Below, in pieces: positions 13,237 through 42,165 of a stretch of DNA of 64,000 nucleotides (positions are counted from its first letter, which is position 1; each line of letters starts with the position of its first letter). The DNA is from Escherichia coli (GTDB lineage Bacteria; Pseudomonadota; Gammaproteobacteria; Enterobacterales; Enterobacteriaceae), in NCBI RefSeq assembly GCF_044324875.1, contig NZ_CP172185.1; one strand, given 5' to 3'. The notes beneath the pieces were generated by a model, which searched no databases, was not told the origin of the DNA, and saw only the letters and a list, made by a program, of their open reading frames with translations. Made by a program: the position numbers and the translations under genes.

Positions 13237-14328
13237 ATGCGTTTTCTGCGCCGACCAATATCGCTGCGCCAACGGCTGATATTGACCATTGGGGCCATTT
13301 TGTTGGTGTTTGAGCTGATCAGCGTCTTCTGGCTATGGCATGAAAGTACCGAGCAGATTCAGCTGTTTGAGCAGGCGCTACGCGACAATCGCAACAACGA
13401 TCGCCACATCATGCGTGAGATCCGCGAGGCGGTCGCCAGCCTGATCGTCCCCGGCGTCTTTATGGTCAGCCTGACGCTATTTATCTGCTATCAGGCGGTA
13501 CGCCGCATCACCCGGCCGCTGGCGGAGCTGCAAAAAGAGCTGGAAGCGCGCACCGCCGACAACTTAACGCCTATTGCCATTCACAGCGCCACCCTCGAAA
13601 TCGAAGCGGTGGTTTCGGCGTTGAACGATCTGGTCAGTCGCCTGACCAGCACGCTGGATAACGAAAGGTTGTTTACCGCTGACGTCGCGCACGAACTGCG
13701 AACGCCACTGGCGGGGGTGCGTTTGCATCTGGAACTGCTGGCGAAAACGCATCACATTGATGTAGCACCGTTAGTGGCTCGACTTGATCAGATGATGGAG
13801 AGTGTCTCCCAGCTGCTGCAACTGGCGCGTGCCGGACAGTCATTTTCTTCCGGGAATTATCAACATGTAAAACTGCTGGAAGATGTCATTCTCCCCTCGT
13901 ATGACGAACTCAGTACCATGCTCGACCAGCGACAGCAAACCCTGCTATTGCCAGAGAGCGCCGCCGACATCACCGTTCAGGGTGATGCAACCCTGCTGCG
14001 GATGTTATTGCGAAACCTGGTAGAAAACGCCCATCGTTACAGCCCGCAAGGCAGCAACATTATGATTAAGCTGCAAGAAGATGGCGGAGCGGTCATGGCC
14101 GTTGAAGATGAAGGACCGGGTATTGATGAGAGTAAATGCGGGGAGTTGAGTAAAGCGTTTGTACGTATGGACAGCCGTTATGGCGGGATTGGTCTGGGGT
14201 TAAGTATTGTCAGCCGCATTACACAGTTGCATCACGGGCAGTTTTTCCTGCAAAACCGGCAAGAGACTTCCGGCACGCGGGCCTGGGTACGGCTGAAGAA
14301 AGATCAGTACGTGGCAAACCAGATATAA
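13237..14328 (+). CDS. basS: Sensor histidine kinase
   Basis: H-box AHELRTPL and ATPase domain motifs; start set at ATG 13237 (MRFLRRP...); ORF track starts at TTG 13228. Confidence 0.9.
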   Translation: MRFLRRPISLRQRLILTIGAILLVFELISVFWLWHESTEQIQLFEQALRDNRNNDRHIMREIREAVASLIVPGVFMVSLTLFICYQAVRRITRPLAELQKELEARTADNLTPIAIHSATLEIEAVVSALNDLVSRLTSTLDNERLFTADVAHELRTPLAGVRLHLELLAKTHHIDVAPLVARLDQMMESVSQLLQLARAGQSFSSGNYQHVKLLEDVILPSYDELSTMLDQRQQTLLLPESAADITVQGDATLLRMLLRNLVENAHRYSPQGSNIMIKLQEDGGAVMAVEDEGPGIDESKCGELSKAFVRMDSRYGGIGLGLSIVSRITQLHHGQFFLQNRQETSGTRAWVRLKKDQYVANQI

Positions 14329-14393
14329 AGAAAGCTGCTGACCACCAGCACGCTGAACACGGTAGTTAAACTTTCATAAACACGGTTTTTCAT
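14304..14393 (-). CDS. pmrR: Small membrane protein PmrR (29 aa), overlapping the 3' end of basS on the opposite strand
   Basis: Minus-strand ATG at 14393 with GGAGGA RBS 8 bp upstream; translation MKNRVYESLTTVFSVLVVSSFLYIWFATY; absent from the ORF track because of its size. Confidence 0.75.
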   Translation of the reverse strand: MKNRVYESLTTVFSVLVVSSFLYIWFATY

Positions 14394-14437
14394 TGCACTC
14401 TCCTCCGTTAACCTGGAGGAGAGTATGCGCGTCAGAG

Positions 14438-14453
14438 ATTAAGTGAACCTTAA
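14438..14453 (-). promoter_or_regulatory. Candidate BasR/PmrA box for pmrR
   Basis: Minus-strand CTTAAG-gttca-CTTAAT about 45 bp upstream of the pmrR start. Confidence 0.45.
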
Positions 14454-14504
14454 GACTTCAATTGGCCTGATAAGACAGCGTCACATCAGGCCATCCGTTT
14501 CAGC

Positions 14505-16007: not shown

Positions 16008-16040
16008 AGCTTTCCTCGCAGAGTTGGCCCATTTCCGCAA

Positions 16041-16270
16041 ACGCCAGAAAAATCAGCGCGACGGCCGCAAAAGGGGAGCGGGAATTGCAGGATGCAATCT
16101 CTGTAACAAGCGTAGCGGGTTTGCTTACACCCTCCGGTTAAGGAATGTACAATCAAACCAGTTGACGCCTGAATTGGGCAGTTAATGACCTTTTTACCCT
16201 ACCAGTGTTTAAATTTGTGATCAACTTCACATATGGATTTCGTTTAGGACTCATTGATGTAACTGATTAT
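16041..16270. promoter_or_regulatory. proP promoter region
   Basis: Non-coding region upstream of proP on the minus strand; individual sites not mapped. Confidence 0.4.
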
Positions 16271-17149
16271 TTACACCAAATTTACAGAGAAGATTTCCTC
16301 GACCATTGCCCCCGCCAGACGCTGCGCTGAACAGAGTCGTGGCATCCCCAGCGCGACAGTTTGCCAGCGTTGGGTCACTGACCAGCAAACGGGTTGTTTA
16401 TCTACCGTGGTCCACTTTCCCAGCCAACTTAAAAAATCAGCATGATCCCCGCCCGTCGGAACGGTCGAAGAGGCAAACCACTGATGGTAATAGTGACGCG
16501 TGGTCGGGGCCGCATTGATACTCTCTGCCAGATGTTGTGTCGCTTTCACGCGCAAATCACCCAGCAACAACGCCACCGCTTGCGGGCTTCCCAGACGGCA
16601 GGCATCGCCAAATGCCCCCCAGCGCAACTCCTCCAGAACGATAAAACAGCGCCCAGGCAACGACCAGGCGTTATACGCCCCAGCACGCCAGCGGGTAAAA
16701 ATTTGCTCGCTCTGTTCACCCGCCTGCACCAGTAGGCCTCGTTGCGTTAACGCCTTTTCCTTCCAGCGACAACGGGCTGAAAACCACTCATACAAGGCGG
16801 CAATTTGCTGGGGGAGCTCCGGGAAAGCAGAGTGCTGGCGGTGATCCATTTTTTGCAGCAGCGCCAGATGCTGCGCGATCTGCGTCAGTGCCAGATGACC
16901 GGGATCCAGCATCGACGCCAGTTTTTCAACCAATGTCAGACGCAGGCTAAGCGGCGCATTTAACATCCCGCCGTTCGTCCATGCCTGAAGCTGCACACGC
17001 GCAAGAAGTTCCTGCATCAGTCGTTCACGAAACTGCTGCTGATGGGCTTGTGGATGGCGGGCATCATCGCCCTGCGCCAGATCCACTAAAAAGCGCGGAT
17101 GAACCGACTCCAGCACGCGACCGGGGCCGTCAAGTAACGTCTTGGTCAA
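16271..17149 (-). CDS. yjcZ: Uncharacterised protein YjcZ
   Basis: 292 aa ORF directly downstream of and overlapping crfC (ATGA-type overlap region), forming a two-gene operon. Confidence 0.85.
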   Translation of the reverse strand: MTKTLLDGPGRVLESVHPRFLVDLAQGDDARHPQAHQQQFRERLMQELLARVQLQAWTNGGMLNAPLSLRLTLVEKLASMLDPGHLALTQIAQHLALLQKMDHRQHSAFPELPQQIAALYEWFSARCRWKEKALTQRGLLVQAGEQSEQIFTRWRAGAYNAWSLPGRCFIVLEELRWGAFGDACRLGSPQAVALLLGDLRVKATQHLAESINAAPTTRHYYHQWFASSTVPTGGDHADFLSWLGKWTTVDKQPVCWSVTQRWQTVALGMPRLCSAQRLAGAMVEEIFSVNLV

Positions 17150-19374
17150 TATCGTTCTGCCGTGAAAAGTGTTTGAATATCATCGCGTAACAGCTGAGCG
17201 TCGGTATAAATCCAGCTGTGAGTCATCACAGTCTGCTGCAATTGCTGCTGCATCAGCCTGACCACCGATTCATTTTGTTGACGCAGAGCCAGGCTTTCGC
17301 GTAAACGCGTCTGTAATTCCGTCAAACATGAAGCGAACTCAGCGAAAAAAGTATTCATGCCTGCCGTAACAGATTCATCGACCTGCTCTGCCAGAACTTT
17401 AGCCATTTGTTGGCAATAAAGATCGACTTCTGCGCTTAATGCTCGTTGCAACACACTGTAATCAACCGTCTCTGTCGGGGATTTCTCATTTCCCCGTCCC
17501 CAGTCGGGCTGATTCAACCAGCGCGAAAAAGTCTCACGCACAACGCCTAAACGCGTGCTCTGCTCGTCCGTTGCTTCCTGGCGCGAAATGACTTCACTGA
17601 ACAGCTGGCGAGTGTTGAAGTGGGGAACTGCGCCGTGAAAAACAGGAAAATGAAACCCAGGACGAAACCCTGACTCGCTCAATTCCATTTTGATTTGTTG
17701 CTCAATGGGGCGAATAACATCGGTTAACACCCGGCAAAGGGTGGATTCCAGCTCGGCAAAACGCAGCGTAAAGTCGCGACTAATGGTGTTCTGCGCCGTC
17801 TGTAACAGTGTCTCACAGCGGGTACGAATCTCGCTTAACGGCTCCGAATCATCCTGAAACAAGGCGGCTAACTGCGCATTCAGCGCATCTTGCTGTTGAC
17901 GCAGAAAGTGGTTGGCGGAGGTCAGGGCCAGCTCGATTTCATGTTTAATCTCGCCGCTCACCTGCGCCTGATTGAGTTGCAATAGCTGCAAACTTTCTTC
18001 GATCTGATGGATATTTTGCCGCAATTGTTCACAAGCGACGTTTAACCCGTGCGCACGAAAATCCAGGTATTCCCGCGCCTGCTGCGCGTAATTCAACAGT
18101 TTATGCGCGGCAGATCGCAGAGCATACAACGAGGCGTTAGCGTAAGCGGCATGAAGCAACGCCTGAATTGGCTGGGCGAACAGCGAATCTTCCCACAACT
18201 GATCGGCAGCATGACGAATATGTTCGAGGTCAGCCAGATCGGCATGACGCCAGCGCCTGCCGAGCGCGGCATGGGCAAAATCTTCCACCCAGCGTTGTTG
18301 CTCTGGCGGTGGTAACTTACCGTTGTTGGCTAACTCATGGCGCGCCCGATTCGCCAGGTAGCCCCACATCGACGACACCGGAAATATCTGCTGTGGCGTA
18401 ATACAGCCTTTCATCAGCGTCCCGGAAATCAGTGCCCGCACCTGGTCGGCGTCGTCACTGTTACGATCCTGTTGATCGAACTTATTGACCAGCACATACA
18501 GCGGCACCGATTGCCCCACCGCCAAAATCGCCTCACGGACCTCTTCATCGGAGATCGATTTCAGTTGCGTATAATCCAGCACTGCCAGTACCGCCGAGGC
18601 GCGTGCCAGCTGCTGGTTAAGCATTTTTTGCAGATGCGGTTGCCCGGCTTCATTTGGCCCGGGGGTATCCAGTAACGTCAACTGACCGGGATAACTCTCC
18701 AGCCCCGCCAGATGGACAAACTCCACTTCAATCACGGGAATATGCTCAATGGCGGCGTAAGCAGAAAAAGGAAAATCGACGTCCAGCGCCTTCGCCAGTC
18801 GCACCAAATCATTCAAACTTTTCAGACAATGAAAAATAGGCTGGGCACCCAGATAATATTTTTCGAAAGCGACGCCATTTTCGATCCGCTGCATAAGCGC
18901 ACGCATATCTTTATCTATTTCCAGCACATCGGTCAGATGCTTAATATCGCAATCACGCAGGCGCTGTTGTAATTTTTGAATTAAACAATCGATTGGCGCG
19001 ACATGTGAAAAATGCAGTACCGGTTCCTTTTGCCCGGGCGTATGGCGAATAAGCGTCGGCAGCGCAGTCATTGGGCGATTACGATTAGGCAAAACCTCCG
19101 TACCAACAATGGCATTAATGGTGGTTGATTTCCCTGCTTTCATGGTACCGACAATCGCCAGCACCATTTCCAGTCGGGAAATTTTACGCAACTCATTATT
19201 CAGCATCGCGTGACGTTCGGCGATATTAGGCTGACTCCAGGGTAAAGCCAGTTGTGGCGCATCGTCTCCGGGGACAGAGAGAGGCATTTTTTCCAGTAAC
19301 TGCAACTGTTGGCGAGAAAGCTGTAACAGGCGTTCAGCCTCCTGACTTAACTCATACAGGGTCTGTGTGTACAT
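17146..19374 (-). CDS. crfC: Dynamin-like GTPase (CrfC/YjdA)
   Basis: 742 aa; P-loop GTMKAGKST, long coiled-coil-rich C-terminal region. Confidence 0.85.
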   Translation of the reverse strand: MYTQTLYELSQEAERLLQLSRQQLQLLEKMPLSVPGDDAPQLALPWSQPNIAERHAMLNNELRKISRLEMVLAIVGTMKAGKSTTINAIVGTEVLPNRNRPMTALPTLIRHTPGQKEPVLHFSHVAPIDCLIQKLQQRLRDCDIKHLTDVLEIDKDMRALMQRIENGVAFEKYYLGAQPIFHCLKSLNDLVRLAKALDVDFPFSAYAAIEHIPVIEVEFVHLAGLESYPGQLTLLDTPGPNEAGQPHLQKMLNQQLARASAVLAVLDYTQLKSISDEEVREAILAVGQSVPLYVLVNKFDQQDRNSDDADQVRALISGTLMKGCITPQQIFPVSSMWGYLANRARHELANNGKLPPPEQQRWVEDFAHAALGRRWRHADLADLEHIRHAADQLWEDSLFAQPIQALLHAAYANASLYALRSAAHKLLNYAQQAREYLDFRAHGLNVACEQLRQNIHQIEESLQLLQLNQAQVSGEIKHEIELALTSANHFLRQQQDALNAQLAALFQDDSEPLSEIRTRCETLLQTAQNTISRDFTLRFAELESTLCRVLTDVIRPIEQQIKMELSESGFRPGFHFPVFHGAVPHFNTRQLFSEVISRQEATDEQSTRLGVVRETFSRWLNQPDWGRGNEKSPTETVDYSVLQRALSAEVDLYCQQMAKVLAEQVDESVTAGMNTFFAEFASCLTELQTRLRESLALRQQNESVVRLMQQQLQQTVMTHSWIYTDAQLLRDDIQTLFTAERY

Positions 19375-19775
19375 AGAAAATTCTTCCTTAAAGCAAATTT
19401 TGTTACTTTTATTTAGCCAGATTGTTTTTGAGTTCTGTTTTCGGCTTTTATAATTACTGCAAGAAATAATTTTATATTTAGCGTGTTGTTTTTTATTAGA
19501 ATAAATAACGTCTTCCGATACGTTTAAAACGTCAGAAAGATAAAAATATCATTTGAATTAAAAAAAGAACAAGTAGAGCATTAACCTTATCTTAAATAAT
19601 AAATGGAGGCAAAAAGATTATTTTCTTTTTGCGTTTCCTTTCAAATGAAAACGATCGTCGTCTAAAATCAGCAGTACCCCCGACAAACTCAGGGATTTTG
19701 TGTATAATTGCGGCCTTTTTCGGCAATCTGCCGTTTTTTGGCGCTTTTGCCCTGCTGACTTTTGAGGAAATCCAC

Positions 19776-20126: not shown

Positions 20127-20215
20127 TAAGCCGGATAAGGCGCTCGCGCCGCATCCGGCAACGATGCCGACAGCCTGATGCGACGCTGACCGCGTCTTAT
20201 CAGGCTTCCCTCTCA
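20127..20215. repeat. BIME-type REP cluster between phnA and phnB
   Basis: Two inverted REP-like units (gccggataaggcgc… / …gcgtcttatcaggc). Confidence 0.6.
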
Positions 20216-22679: not shown

Positions 22680-22768
22680 GTAAGTCGGATAAGACGCCAC
22701 GGCGTCGCATCCGACAATGTGCAGACGTTGATGCCGGATGCGGTGCAAGCACCTTATCCGGCCTACAG
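22680..22768. repeat. REP/BIME inside the phn operon (phnD-phnE spacer)
   Basis: gtcggataagacgc… / …gccggatgcggtg…ccttatccggcctac inverted REP units. Confidence 0.6.
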
Positions 22769-32216: not shown

Positions 32217-32534
32217 TCAATTTCTCCGCTGCTCTATTGCCGTAATCGCCTCCACGCGTTGTTGATGACGACCGCCTTCGTACTGCGCGCCCAGCCACGC
32301 ATCCACAATCATTTTTGCCAGTTCGAGGCCAACCACTCGTGAACCAAAAGCCAGTGCAACTTCACTGGCGTAATGCGGATAATCAGTACGCTCTGACGAC
32401 CTGGTTTCTTTATCAATCCCCTCACTCATTGACCATGAATAAAAGGCTGGCACAGCAACGCAGAATCCTGCGGTGCCAGCGACATGACCGCCCATTGCTC
32501 CGGTACGTTTTTTAATAAAAAACACCGGTTGCAT
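32217..32534 (-). pseudogene. rpiB: Truncated ribose-5-phosphate isomerase B remnant
   Basis: C-terminal ~46 residues (AFGSRVVGLELAKMIVDAWLGAQYEGGRHQQRVEAITAIEQRRN) and the SSERTDYPHYAS segment match RpiB as I recall it, but the central catalytic region (ICGTGVG… block) is missing and the N-terminal 40 residues are not recognisable. Confidence 0.6.
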
Positions 32535-32786: not shown

Positions 32787-34772
32787 ATGAATAACTCTCG
32801 GTTATTCCGTTTGAGCAGGATTGTTATTGCGTTAACTGCCGCCAGCGGCATGATGGTAAATACCGCTTACGCAACAGATGAAGCGAAAGCCGCCACTCAA
32901 TATACCCAACAGGTTAATCAGAATTACGCCAAATCATTACCGTTTAGCGATCGTCAGGATTTTGACGATGCCCAGCGTGGATTTATCGCCCCGCTGCTGG
33001 ATGAAGGTATTCTGCGTGATGCGAACGGTAAAGTTTACTACCGCGCAGACGATTACAAATTTGATATTAATGCCGCTGCGCCGGAAACCGTAAACCCCAG
33101 CCTGTGGCGTCAGTCGCAAATCAACGGTATTTCTGGCCTGTTCAAAGTCACCGATAAAATGTATCAGGTGCGCGGCCAGGATATCTCTAACATTACGTTC
33201 GTTGAGGGCGAGAAAGGCATTATTGTTATCGACCCGCTGGTGACGCCGCCTGCCGCAAAAGCCGCACTTGATCTTTACTTCCAGCATCGTCCGCAAAAAC
33301 CGATTGTTGCTGTGATTTACACCCACAGCCACGCCGACCATTATGGCGGTGTGAAAGGCATTATCTCTGAAGCGGATGTTAAATCCGGCAAAGTGCAGGT
33401 GATCGCTCCGGCAGGCTTTATGGACGAAGCCATCAGCGAAAACGTGCTGGCGGGTAACATCATGAGCCGCCGTGCGCTCTACTCTTACGGTCTGTTACTG
33501 CCGCACAACGCGCAAGGCAACGTGGGCAACGGCCTGGGCGTGACGCTGGCAACCGGCGACCCGAGCATTATTGCACCGACTAAAACTATCGTCAGAACTG
33601 GCGAGAAGATGATTATCGACGGCCTGGAATTTGACTTCCTGATGACTCCGGGTAGCGAAGCGCCAGCCGAAATGCACTTCTATATTCCGGCCCTGAAAGC
33701 CCTGTGTACCGCCGAGAACGCCACGCATACCCTGCACAACTTCTACACTCTGCGCGGCGCGAAAACCCGCGATACCAGCAAGTGGACCGAGTACCTGAAC
33801 GAAACGCTGGATATGTGGGGTAACGACGCGGAAGTACTGTTTATGCCGCACACCTGGCCGGTCTGGGGCAATAAGCATATCAATGATTATATTGGTAAAT
33901 ATCGCGATACTATCAAGTACATTCACGACCAGACCCTGCACCTGGCGAACCAGGGCTACACCATGAATGAAATCGGCGACATGATTAAGCTGCCGCCTGC
34001 GCTTGCCAATAACTGGGCCAGCCGCGGCTATTACGGTTCTGTCAGCCACAACGCCCGCGCGGTGTATAACTTCTATCTTGGCTATTACGACGGTAACCCG
34101 GCTAACCTACATCCGTATGGTCAGGTGGAGATGGGTAAACGTTACGTGAAAGCGCTGGGCGGTTCTGCCCGCGTCATCAACCTGGCGCAAGAAGCGAACA
34201 AGCAAGGTGATTACCGTTGGTCGGCAGAACTGCTGAAACAGGTGATTGCCGCCAACCCTGGTGACCAGGTCGCGAAGAATCTGCAAGCGAATAACTTTGA
34301 ACAGCTGGGCTATCAGGCCGAGTCCGCCACCTGGCGCGGTTTCTACCTGACCGGCGCGAAAGAGCTGCGCGAAGGGGTGCATAAATTCAACCACGGCACC
34401 ACCGGTTCCCCGGACACCCTTCGCGGAATGTCGGTCGAAATGCTGTTCGACTTTATGTCCGTTCGCCTCGATAGTGCGAAAGCCGCGGGTAAAAATATCA
34501 GCCTGAACTTCAATATGAGCAACGGCGATAACCTCAACCTGACGCTGAACGATAGCGTGCTTAACTACCGTAAAACGCTGCAACCGCAAGCCGACGCCTC
34601 TTTCTACATCAGCCGTGAAGATCTGCATGCCGTGCTGACCGGACAAGTCAAAATAGTGGATCTGGTAAAAGCGAAGAAAGCCAAAATTATTGGCAATGGC
34701 GCGAAACTGGAAGAAATTATTGCCTGTCTGGATAATTTCGATTTGTGGGTGAATATCGTAACCCCAAATTAA
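32787..34772 (+). CDS. yjcS: MBL-fold alkyl/aryl sulfatase (SdsA1-like)
   Basis: 661 aa; signal peptide, THSHADH zinc motif, SCP2-like C-terminus; start set at second ATG (MNNSRLFRL…). Confidence 0.9.
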
Positions 34773-40017: not shown

Positions 40018-42165
40018 ATGAAAAAAGTCGTCACGGTTTGCCCCTATTGCGCATCAGGTTGCAAAATCAACCTGGTCGTCGATAACGGCAAAATCGTCCG
40101 GGCGGAGGCAGCGCAGGGGAAAACCAACCAGGGTACCCTGTGTCTGAAGGGTTATTATGGCTGGGATTTCATTAACGATACCCAGATCCTGACCCCGCGC
40201 CTGAAAACCCCCATGATCCGTCGCCAGCGTGGCGGCAAACTCGAACCTGTTTCCTGGGATGAGGCACTGAATTACGTTGCCGAGCGCCTGAGCGCCATCA
40301 AAGAGAAGTACGGTCCGGATGCCATCCAGACGACCGGCTCCTCGCGTGGTACGGGTAACGAAACCAACTATGTAATGCAAAAATTTGCGCGCGCCGTTAT
40401 TGGTACCAATAACGTTGACTGCTGCGCTCGTGTCTGACACGGCCCATCGGTTGCAGGTCTGCACCAATCGGTCGGTAATGGCGCAATGAGCAATGCTATT
40501 AACGAAATTGATAATACCGATTTAGTGTTCGTTTTCGGGTACAACCCGGCGGATTCCCACCCAATCGTGGCGAATCACGTAATTAACGCTAAACGTAACG
40601 GGGCGAAAATTATCGTCTGCGATCCGCGCAAAATTGAAACCGCGCGCATTGCGGACATGCACATTGCACTGAAAAACGGCTCGAACATCGCGCTGTTGAA
40701 TGCGATGGGCCATGTCATTATTGAAGAAAATCTGTACGACAAAGCGTTCGTCGCTTCCCGCACAGAAGGCTTTGAAGAGTATCGTAAAATCGTTGAAGGC
40801 TACACGCCGGAGTCGGTTGAAGATATCACCGGCGTCAGCGCCAGTGAGATTCGTCAGGCGGCGCGGATGTATGCCCAGGCGAAAAGCGCCGCCATCCTGT
40901 GGGGCATGGGTGTAACCCAGTTCTACCAGGGCGTGGAAACCGTGCGTTCTCTGACCAGCCTCGCGATGCTGACTGGTAACCTCGGTAAGCCGCATGCGGG
41001 TGTAAACCCGGTTCGTGGTCAGAACAACGTGCAGGGTGCCTGCGATATGGGCGCGCTGCCGGATACGTATCCGGGATACCAGTACGTGAAAGATCCGGCT
41101 AACCGCGAGAAATTCGCCAAAGCCTGGGGCGTGGAAAGCCTGCCAGCGCATACCGGCTATCGCATCAGCGAGCTGCCGCACCGCGCAGCGCATGGCGAAG
41201 TGCGTGCCGCGTACATTATGGGCGAAGATCCGCTGCAAACTGACGCGGAGCTGTCGGCAGTACGTAAAGCCTTTGAAGATCTGGAACTGGTTATCGTTCA
41301 GGACATCTTTATGACCAAAACCGCGTCGGCGGCGGATGTTATTTTACCGTCAACGTCGTGGGGCGAGCATGAAGGCGTGTTTACTGCGGCTGACCGTGGT
41401 TTCCAGCGTTTCTTCAAAGCAGTTGAACCGAAATGGGATCTGAAAACGGACTGGCAAATCATCAGTGAAATTGCCACTCGTATGGGTTATCCGATGCACT
41501 ACAACAACACCCAGGAGATCTGGGATGAGTTGCGTCATCTGTGCCCGGATTTCTACGGTGCGACTTACGAAAAAATGGGCGAACTGGGCTTCATTCAGTG
41601 GCCTTGCCGCGATACTTCAGATGCCGATCAGGGGACTTCTTATCTGTTTAAAGAGAAGTTTGATACCCCGAACGGTCTGGCGCAGTTCTTCACCTGCGAC
41701 TGGGTAGCGCCAATCGACAAACTCACCGACGAGTATCCGATGGTACTGTCAACGGTGCGTGAAGTTGGTCACTACTCTTGCCGTTCGATGACCGGTAACT
41801 GTGCGGCACTGGCGGCGCTGGCTGATGAACCTGGCTACGCACAAATCAATACCGAAGACGCCAAACGTCTGGGTATTGAAGATGAGGCATTGGTTTGGGT
41901 GCACTCGCGTAAAGGCAAAATTATCACCCGTGCGCAGGTCAGCGATCGTCCGAACAAAGGGGCGATTTACATGACCTACCAGTGGTGGATTGGTGCCTGT
42001 AACGAGCTGGTTACCGAAAACTTAAGCCCGATTACGAAAACGCCGGAATACAAATACTGCGCCGTGCGCGTCGAGCCGATCGCCGATCAGCGCGCCGCCG
42101 AGCAGTACGTGATTGACGAGTACAACAAGTTGAAAACTCGCCTGCGCGAAGCGGCACTGGCGTAA
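40018..42165 (+). CDS. fdhF: Formate dehydrogenase H, selenocysteine-containing molybdoenzyme
   Basis: 715 codons in one frame with an in-frame TGA at 40435-40437 (…CCARV-U-HGPSVAGLHQ…); N-terminal CPYCASGC Fe-S motif; ORF track splits it into 40018-40437 and 40486-42165 in the same frame. Confidence 0.95.
40435..40480 (+). other. UGA selenocysteine codon plus downstream SECIS hairpin
   Basis: TGA followed immediately by cacggcccatcggttgcaggtctgcaccaatcggtcggtaatggcg, which can fold into the stem-loop (ggttgcaggtctgcacc apex) recognised by SelB. Confidence 0.85.

Follow-up and report, generated by a model that had tools for sequence, protein, structure and literature searches.

The crfC-yjcZ locus of Escherichia coli is the known rdcA-rdcB gene pair, and relatives of RdcB accompany patatin genes on mobile islands

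Gene content and identity of the locus

The window analyzed here, a stretch of 64,000 nucleotides from an E. coli chromosome, carries the adjacent genes crfC and yjcZ, with proP, pmrB, yjdM and phn as neighbours (Table 1). Both products have more than one name: CrfC is also YjdA and RdcA, and YjcZ is also RdcB. A first-pass annotation, made from the sequence alone, had placed proteins of 742 and 292 residues at this position. Both open reading frames are exact, on the minus strand, which had been left unstated, and RefSeq gives the same two coding sequences and the same overlap as the ORF-based calls. The identities crfC and yjcZ also stand, with NCBIfam, Pfam and RefSeq in agreement. CrfC matches the NCBIfam CrfC equivalog NF007368 with 1596.4 bits (curated cut-off, 1146 bits), residues 1–742 covering a 742-position profile. 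RdcB matches Pfam PF13990 (YjcZ) over profile positions 1–272 of 272, with an E-value of 1e-143 and 478.1 bits (gathering score, 27 bits). Given these scores, neither gene is a chance ORF.

The pair is present in 5416 of 5426 complete E. coli genomes, and the DNA of the locus is 95–99.6% identical to these 5416 (best, 99.6%; majority, 95–99%). The window shares with the RdcA/RdcB system of K-12 (PMC6510439) the genes, their neighbours, the 4-nt overlap, K82, T103 and the internal FliA promoter. The differences between the two are allelic only and, judged by sequence, nothing functional appears to differ. The locus is thus the RdcA/RdcB gene pair of E. coli, which is already known and was characterized previously. 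In the wider family, crfC and rdcB are adjacent and on the same strand in all 80 Enterobacteriaceae loci compared, and the 4-nt overlap is found in 76 of them (ATGA in 72, TTGA in three, from Escherichia, and GTGA in one). In this core clade the pair sits at one constant place in the chromosome, with yjdM on one side and proP on the other.

Table 1. Features of the crfC-yjcZ locus, in window coordinates.
Feature	Position	Strand	Basis or remark
rdcB-proP spacer, end of the transcription unit	16008..16270	-	weak terminator-like hairpin, 16069..16057
yjcZ / rdcB CDS, 292 aa, TTG start, RdcA partner	16271..17149	-	ORF, Pfam PF13990, RefSeq 'rdcB'
Stop/start overlap TTGA, 4 nt (crfC TGA stop, rdcB TTG start)	17146..17149	-	sequence
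crfC / yjdA / rdcA CDS, 742 aa, soluble dynamin-like GTPase	17146..19374	-	ORF, NCBIfam, Pfam, RefSeq
FliA (sigma-28) promoter inside crfC, for rdcB; start 252 nt 5' of the rdcB start codon	17374..17401	-	TAAAGTTCTGGCAGAGCAGGTCGATGAA
Catalytic G2 threonine T103 codon	19066..19068	-	invariant, 81 orthologues
P-loop/G1 GTMKAGKST codons, residues 76–84, including K82	19123..19149	-	K82 invariant, 81 orthologues
Beta-clamp-binding motif 41-QLALP codons, residues 41–45	19240..19254	-	motif defined in PMC6374313
AT-rich divergent intergenic region crfC/yjdM, with crfC ribosome-binding site and putative crfC promoter	19375..19775	.	

Transcription and translation of rdcB

The G+C content falls to 24% across positions 19375–19628, compared to 53% for the window. 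The crfC gene starts with ATG and has a ribosome-binding site of its own, AAGGAAG, 8–14 nt before it. A sigma-70-like match at 19644..19617 is a match to the consensus only. Sigma-70 and terminator scans near the operon gave background levels and carry no weight here. The transcription unit is taken to end at rdcB because the next gene is convergent in other genera.

The overlapping stop and start noted in the first pass is confirmed as four nucleotides, TTGA, read as ...CGA TAT TGA in the crfC frame and TTG ACC AAG in the yjcZ frame. No Shine-Dalgarno-like sequence was found 5' of the rdcB TTG start. With a TTG start, no Shine-Dalgarno sequence and a 4-nt overlap with the crfC stop, rdcB on the long transcript is most likely translated by termination-reinitiation.

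A second source of rdcB RNA lies within crfC. The sequence TAAAGTTCTGGCAGAGCAGGTCGATGAA, located by pattern search and direct reading, is identical to the (yjdA)yjcZ FliA promoter of K-12 defined by ChIP-seq and RNA-seq, and positions 17375–17401 give a 27-nt match, with three mismatches, to a sigma-28 pattern of the type TAAAGTTT-N11-GCCGATAA. In K-12, yjcZ is driven by this promoter within crfC, and its RNA drops from 52 to 1 on deletion of fliA (PMC4183435). The supply of RdcB would, therefore, be tied to the flagellar regulon through the internal promoter, as shown in K-12, whose promoter sequence is repeated here. The description of the locus as a two-gene operon is correct in that the genes form an adjacent, overlapping and conserved pair, but it is incomplete, since the FliA promoter inside crfC also transcribes yjcZ. 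The motif is retained in Escherichia, Citrobacter, Enterobacter, Phytobacter and Lelliottia, and is eroded in those genera that diverge most. To ask whether selection on the DNA, as opposed to the protein, holds the motif, codon use was compared in 17 non-redundant orthologues: GTC is used in 10 of 15 and GAT in 13 of 17, within the 70th–74th percentile for conserved Val and Asp codons.

The GTPase, its helical partner and DgcE

The proposal that CrfC is a dynamin-like GTPase with an N-terminal P-loop is well supported. Dynamin_N (PF00350) matches residues 72–277 with an E-value of 2.6e-18, GTMKAGKST spans residues 76–84, and the G2 threonine is followed by G3 (DTPG at 236) and G4 (NKFD at 297), so that the domain and all four G motifs of a dynamin-like GTPase are present. 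K82, T103, D236, N297, K298 and D300 are invariant across 81 CrfC orthologues. Residues ∼280–742 gave no Pfam or PDB sequence match, and the PDB sequence search with CrfC returned a weak match to the bacterial dynamin-like protein BDLP (2j68, 1.8e-6) over ∼50 G-domain residues, as well as 5owv. GTP hydrolysis and nucleotide-dependent oligomerization have been reported for YjdA (Ozaki 2013, as cited in PMC6510439), and CrfC is reported to be soluble, without a membrane-binding motif (PMC6510439, PMC6374313).

Several bacterial dynamin-like proteins work in pairs, such as Nostoc BDLP, Campylobacter DLP1/2 and LeoA/LeoBC (Eleos), and share a Dynamin_N G domain with CrfC, with weak sequence matches to LeoBC and LeoA (E-values of about 5e-6 to 9e-6). 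Matches beyond the first ∼50 G-domain residues are weak or absent. In these pairs the partner is a second dynamin, whereas the partner of CrfC is an unrelated helical protein of 292 residues. Eleos comprises two dynamins, LeoA and LeoBC, and the window contains one dynamin gene, with PADLOC scores of 23.8 bits (LeoBC) and 23.1 bits (LeoA).

No recognizable motif had been seen in yjcZ at first. The protein, however, defines the family PF13990, with strongly conserved blocks LEELRWGxFG and GMPRLCSA, although a biochemical activity is indeed not readable from its sequence. RdcB is predicted to be all-helical (pLDDT 90.7, from an 86-sequence alignment); this model supersedes an earlier one with pLDDT 65, built from a 21-sequence Enterobacteriaceae alignment. 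The helical model has no informative structural relative, and a PDB sequence search with RdcB returned nothing meaningful (top match, a GFP chimera, E = 0.58). None of the defence-system models in PADLOC matches RdcB or its relatives. Within Enterobacteriaceae, C167, C183, C272 and H218 do not vary, which suggested a redox or metal site. This idea was dropped because none of the four reaches 90% conservation in the 86-sequence family alignment. Our best guess is that RdcB is a stoichiometric adaptor or stabilizer of the RdcA assembly and not an enzyme.

The earlier view that the function of yjcZ is open is out of date, as YjcZ is RdcB, a co-activator of DgcE (PMC6510439), and an independent screen has since confirmed this (PMC13031359). 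The names rdcA and rdcB come from Pfiffer et al. (2019), who demonstrated that both genes are required for activation of the diguanylate cyclase DgcE; deleting either gene or both gave the phenotype of a dgcE knockout, with no additive effect (PMC6510439). [quoted passage not shown] Bacterial two-hybrid and deletion phenotypes, both suggested as checks in the first-pass annotation, had thus already been published. Activation of DgcE requires GTP hydrolysis: RdcA T103D, designed to bind GTP without hydrolysis, lost both DgcE binding and activation, while K82A, a dynamin-based design to abolish GTP binding, retained activation (PMC6510439). The c-di-GMP made by DgcE relieves the inhibition of DgcM/MlrA by PdeR, which turns on csgD, curli and pEtN-cellulose (PMC6510439). 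The same authors proposed that the signal is the fall in GTP on entry into stationary phase and that RdcA, as a dimer, brings two molecules of DgcE into alignment (PMC6510439). In a 2026 genome-wide transposon FRET-To-Sort screen, dgcE, rdcA and rdcB were enriched in low-c-di-GMP mutants (PMC13031359). No dgcE gene is found in 50 kb of the window annotation; it lies outside the 64-kb window.

We consider it likely that the locus encodes this system, a DgcE-activating GTPase and its partner, together with the model for rdcB expression given above. RdcA is a soluble, oligomerizing dynamin-like GTPase that contacts DgcE at its N-terminal MASE1 domain; RdcB, predicted to be all-helical, binds RdcA, and both proteins are needed to activate the membrane-bound cyclase.

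The same GTPase has been credited with beta-clamp binding as well as c-di-GMP control, and our comparative results bear on this dual assignment and on the molecular role of RdcB. The CrfC described as a nucleoid partition factor, which binds the beta clamp and ensures nucleoid equipartition (Ozaki et al. 2013; PMC6374313), is the same protein as RdcA, with both 41-QLALP and the dynamin-like G domain. It could be argued that the locus mainly serves chromosome biology, with CrfC oligomers binding the beta sliding clamp via QLALP, holding sister forks together and ensuring equipartition, and with yjcZ a mere neighbour. QLALP is present at residues 41–45 of the window protein, anucleate cells are described both when crfC is deleted and in a Q41A mutant (PMC6374313), and both RefSeq and NCBIfam use the name 'clamp-binding protein CrfC'. 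However, the pentapeptide (QL[SDA]LP/F-like, with an essential Gln) is present in the window and absent from the other 80 orthologues, so that QLALP occurs in one of 81, namely the E. coli sequence of the window itself. In two other Escherichia species this site reads PLTLP, so that the essential Q41 is missing, and in other genera it reads V(L/Q)PLH. All, by contrast, keep the GTPase residues and have rdcB as partner, so clamp binding cannot be what is conserved in the pair. Furthermore, the clamp interaction is independent of GTP and the in vivo data come mostly from plasmid expression (Pfiffer et al., PMC6510439). The published work on the clamp-binding CrfC (PMC6374313) does not consider yjcZ, a term that appears nowhere in it, and this reading leaves the constant attachment of rdcB unexplained. 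Clamp binding as the main role of the locus is, therefore, unlikely; by the orthologue alignment, it appears to have been gained recently and in E. coli only. The clamp and DgcE roles are not mutually exclusive, and CrfC may be moonlighting in E. coli.

RdcB relatives and the patatin cassette

Outside the Enterobacteriaceae core clade, RdcB relatives usually follow a CrfC-like dynamin gene, and a patatin phospholipase gene comes next downstream in 88 of the 88 loci (30 non-redundant) with room downstream. The dynamin of this three-gene cassette is 36% identical to CrfC over ∼700 residues, with identical GTMKAGKS, DTPG and NKFD motifs, and its RdcB-like protein is ∼30% identical to RdcB and belongs to PF13990. 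Gene order and 4-nt overlaps are as in the core pair. The cassette differs in having the third gene and in being accessory and located on integrase-bearing islands, and a single split in the tree separates it from the core rdcA-rdcB pair. It is found in 2613 of 5426 E. coli genomes (about 48%), at up to five places per genome. Within these islands, the Acinetobacter cassette lies next to a WYL regulator and that of E. coli Nissle next to antirestriction/RadC/CbtA modules.

These cassettes raise the question of whether the core pair retains an ancestral membrane-directed or anti-phage job, with DgcE activation as a side or secondary output. The patatins appear catalytically intact by motif (GGGxxG, GxSxG and DGG), the cassette was reported to show the strongest up-regulation of any operon in a lysogen, where a defence role was put forward for it (PMC12922286), and the dynamin pair Eleos (LeoA/LeoBC) is a described anti-phage system. 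Such a retained role is nevertheless very improbable for rdcA-rdcB: tblastn with five cassette patatins had no match within the window, where proP follows rdcB, or within 80 core loci, patatin genes are present in 0 of 83 core-clade loci, the pair sits at its fixed yjdM-proP site, defence-model libraries gave weak matches only (LeoBC, 5e-6) and none to RdcB, rdcAB itself has no known phage phenotype, and the effect on DgcE is specific and depends on the GTPase (PMC6510439). Among genes neighbouring RdcB and its relatives, PADLOC likewise gave only weak matches, to LeoBC and CBASS-phospholipase models.

We tentatively suggest, at less than even confidence, that rdcA-rdcB branched off from a mobile three-gene cassette, which circulates on genomic islands of Gammaproteobacteria, and is now a form without patatin, fixed in the chromosome. 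RdcB-type proteins would be generic couplers of a CrfC-type GTP switch to an output enzyme, with the switch rewired in Enterobacteriaceae to the MASE1 domain of DgcE. The output of the mobile form would be a membrane-degrading phospholipase, and that form possibly an abortive-infection or membrane-attack module. The homology of both proteins, the patatin linkage in 88 of 88 loci with room downstream, the single tree split and the island context are observed; that patatin was lost, that RdcB is a coupler and that defence is involved at all are what we infer.

The crfC-yjcZ finding is a rediscovery of a characterized E. coli system, and its value lies in correct annotation: yjcZ should be updated to RdcB, a co-activator without which DgcE, the master biofilm cyclase, is not switched on. 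While the rdcA-rdcB pair itself is already explained, the patatin linkage of RdcB relatives is a new lead, which ties the family outside the core clade to patatin phospholipases on mobile islands, which are also carried by about half of E. coli strains. If the coupler idea is true, a switch in biofilm signalling and a candidate module for conflict or defence would be connected.

Structure and chromosomal site of the crfC-yjcZ pair

The first-pass annotation described a two-gene operon of crfC (yjdA, rdcA) and yjcZ (rdcB) at 16271–19374. The pair is real and was correctly located and named, as judged by the open reading frames, the family matches and RefSeq, which lists crfC and rdcB with the identical overlap. 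CrfC matches Pfam Dynamin_N (2.6e-18) and the NCBIfam CrfC equivalog (1596 bits; cut-off 1146), and carries the P-loop GTMKAGKST (residues 76–84), DTPG at 236 and NKFD at 297. YjcZ matches the Pfam YjcZ family (1e-143). Both are genuine genes. Of 5426 complete E. coli genomes, 5416 contain the 3.1-kb stretch (95–99.6% identity), and the window, spanning fumB to nrfA, is unremarkable E. coli chromosome.

Features located in the window
Feature	Coordinates	Strand	Remarks
STnc630 sRNA	14297–14462	minus	Rfam, 181 bits
yjcZ CDS	16271–17149	minus	292 aa, TTG start, ORF
crfC CDS	17146–19374	minus	742 aa, ATG start, ORF
rdcB start codon	17147–17149		TTG
FliA-site 28-mer	17374–17401	minus	within crfC codons 657–667
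naRNA4 (CssrE, REP-derived)	20129–20206	plus	between yjdM and yjdN
naRNA4 (CssrE, REP-derived)	22683–22763	minus	between phnD and phnE
105-aa ORF	32217–32534	minus	C-terminal half resembles end of RpiB
Second sigma-28-like match	33029–33055	plus	TAAAGTTTACTACCGCGCAGACGATTA, 2 mismatches
SECIS element	40430–40484	plus	inside fdhF, 87 bits
sraL sRNA	60780–60920	plus	153 bits

At the junction, crfC reads ...GCA GAA CGA TAT TGA and TTG ACC AAG ACG follows in the next frame; the crfC stop therefore overlaps the yjcZ start by 4 nt (TTGA). The sequence AAGGAAG lies upstream of crfC, while the sequence read upstream of yjcZ contains no Shine-Dalgarno-like element. Relatives of YjcZ were sought in one genome for each of 100,044 species, which yielded 111, of which 80 were kept for locus analysis. 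A CrfC orthologue lies directly upstream on the same strand in all 80. The 4-nt overlap is present in 76 (ATGA in 72, TTGA in 3 from Escherichia, GTGA in 1), and the remaining four have a 2-nt gap. The TTG start, found in three Escherichia loci and replaced in other genera by ATG (76 loci) or GTG (one), is therefore specific to Escherichia in this sample. Together with the absent Shine-Dalgarno sequence, it implies that independent initiation of rdcB may be weak in Escherichia.

Enterobacteriaceae genus or family names are attached to 77 of the 80 loci; the others come from two metagenome bins labelled 'Proteobacteria' and one record labelled 'Chryseobacterium'. The latter (L069, titled Chryseobacterium sp. 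18061) has a typical Enterobacteriaceae yjdM-crfC-rdcB-proP locus, for which mislabelling or contamination of the assembly is the most likely explanation. The site is fixed, with yjdM upstream in 78/80 and proP downstream in 68/80. In other genera a convergent permease gene follows yjcZ, and the transcription unit therefore ends at yjcZ. More divergent members (31–40% identity) are also two-gene, and have the same yjdM/yjdN neighbours (Dryocola, Buttiauxella) or lie on a short contig.

Three E. coli proteins of 438–442 aa (P0019, P0021 and P0022) carry Dynamin_N and YjcZ domains on one chain, with 97–98% identity to the window RdcB across ∼70% of its length; they are probably internal deletions joining crfC to rdcB.

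Elsewhere in the window, the SECIS element and sraL are expected E. coli features, and STnc630 overlaps the small pmrR gene and the 3' end of pmrB on the opposite strand. The RefSeq counterpart of the 105-aa ORF is named 'RpiB/LacA/LacB family sugar-phosphate isomerase'. In K-12, rpiB and the als (allose) operon presumably lie between yjdP and yjcS; if so, this block is deleted here and the ORF is its remnant.

Transcription of yjcZ

A FliA binding site inside yjdA (motif TAAAGTTCTGGCAGAGCAGGTCGATGAA; fold above threshold score 19) was mapped by Fitzgerald et al. 2014 (PMC4183435) and stated to drive yjcZ. Upon fliA deletion, normalised yjcZ expression fell from 52 to 1 and that of yjdA from 111 to 11 (PMC4183435). 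In a follow-up to that study, a lacZ fusion showed the intra-yjdA promoter to be active and FliA-dependent. The 28-mer in the window is identical to the published site and begins 252 nt before the yjcZ start codon; hence, yjcZ is not solely co-transcribed with crfC. The internal FliA promoter qualifies the proposed operon without refuting it.

In most genera the sigma-28 motif is kept at an unchanged position; in the most divergent ones it is decayed. Among 17 non-redundant orthologues, its key codons are GTC in 10/15 and GAT in 13/17; as a test for DNA-level selection, this usage reaches only the 70th–74th percentile of conserved Val/Asp codons. The second sigma-28-like match, placed inside yjcS by the coordinates that RefSeq gives for a closely related strain, may be due to chance (two matches per window in 9/100 shuffles).

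RdcA, RdcB and the activation of DgcE

The first-pass annotation left the function of yjcZ open and proposed two-hybrid and deletion experiments, all of which had been overtaken by Pfiffer et al. 2019 (PMC6510439), who renamed yjdA/yjcZ as rdcA/rdcB and found RdcB to be required for activation of the diguanylate cyclase DgcE. The finding is thus already known and its earlier interpretation partly out of date. Deletion of rdcA, rdcB or both reproduces the dgcE-knockout phenotype non-additively, as read from macrocolony matrix, CsgD, csgB::lacZ and c-di-GMP (PMC6510439). In two-hybrid assays RdcA contacts itself, RdcB and the MASE1 domain of DgcE, and RdcB contacts neither itself nor DgcE (PMC6510439). 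Of two alleles designed from dynamin, K82A (abolishing GTP binding) retains activation, and T103D (binding without hydrolysing GTP) lacks activation and loses DgcE binding (PMC6510439). In the authors' model, a drop of GTP in stationary phase allows nucleotide-free RdcA/RdcB to align two DgcE molecules (PMC6510439). Low-c-di-GMP mutants in a 2026 transposon FRET-To-Sort screen were independently enriched for dgcE, rdcA and rdcB (PMC13031359). The same screen strongly associated ynjH, another FliA-regulon gene, with the RdcA/RdcB system (PMC13031359); ynjH, encoded outside the window, is a possible third component.

Under the name CrfC, the protein has also been described as a nucleoid partition factor that binds the beta clamp and carries the motif 41-QLALP (PMC6374313). 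Across 81 CrfC orthologues, K82, T103, D236, N297, K298 and D300 are invariant, while QLALP is found only in the E. coli sequence of the window; in Escherichia sp. E1V33 and E. whittamii the corresponding residues are PLTLP, without the Gln essential for clamp binding, and in other genera they are V(L/Q)PLH. What is conserved in the pair is therefore a function based on the GTPase and linked to rdcB. From this alignment, E. coli seems to have gained clamp binding recently, in line with the 'moonlighting' interpretation given by Pfiffer et al., and the role in chromosome partition is probably an additional one peculiar to E. coli. Published genetics and the conservation described here make it highly probable that the locus is RdcA/RdcB, a GTP-responsive activator of DgcE.

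The AlphaFold model of RdcB (86-sequence alignment) is all-helical and confident (pLDDT 90.7, pTM 0.91). Searches of BFVD, PDB sequences and PADLOC gave no match. The best-conserved blocks are LEELRWGxFG and GMPRLCSA; the cysteines invariant in Enterobacteriaceae are neither invariant nor nearly so in the wider family alignment, and we found no indication that RdcB is an enzyme. Our best guess is that RdcB would serve as an adaptor or regulator of the RdcA assembly.

The dynamin, RdcB-like and patatin cassette

A profile search of 1.84 billion representatives gave 262 RdcB family members. Every distant member examined lies in an array, often with overlapping genes, of a CrfC-like dynamin (723–805 aa), an RdcB-like protein (∼300 aa) and a patatin phospholipase (∼344–383 aa). 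In a sample of 90 cassette loci, 80 of them from a metagenome scan, patatin directly follows the RdcB-like gene in all 88 with room downstream, and dynamin and patatin are both present in 85. The patatin gene is absent from the window and from 83/83 core-clade (two-gene) loci. A neighbour-joining tree built from 58 non-redundant proteins of the RdcB family contains a single split dividing 25/25 two-gene from 30/30 patatin-linked members. By their motifs the cassette proteins look functional: GTMKAGKS, DTPG and NKFD are common to the dynamins and CrfC, and GGGxxG, GxSxG and DGG are retained in the patatins.

The cassette is island-borne. In E. coli, 2613/5426 complete genomes have it, at as many as 5 places each, and it has no PADLOC system match. 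E. coli Nissle 1917 (NZ_CP022686.1; L172:12001-16366) carries a paralogous operon whose three genes, for a dynamin family protein, an RdcB-family protein and a patatin-like phospholipase, overlap by 4 nt at each junction; it is adjoined by an integrase and a DUF905/DUF932/antirestriction/RadC-JAB/YeeU-CbtA block. An Acinetobacter cassette (L089/L090:2905-9976) sits between integrase genes, after a gene for a WYL-domain regulator and one for an additional dynamin of 534 aa, a layout typical of defence islands; it has no PADLOC system match. We found no functional study of the E. coli cassette in the literature, where it was strongly induced in a lysogen with a putative defence role proposed (PMC12922286) and is mentioned in passing (PMC13182975).

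A variant on a 1.44-Mb metagenome contig (L086:6001-8630) lacks the dynamin and still has patatin next, which suggests that the RdcB-like protein and patatin are the tighter pairing within the cassette. Its 532-aa protein fuses an N-terminal DUF3944 and a Ubiq_cyt_C_chap-like region to the YjcZ domain.

Since the three-gene form is broader and mobile, we infer that the core clade arose by patatin loss. The tie of the wider RdcB family to this array is a new lead. Tentatively, RdcB-type proteins might connect a GTP switch of the CrfC type with different output enzymes, in which case the core pair would have been domesticated from a mobile dynamin-RdcB-patatin module.
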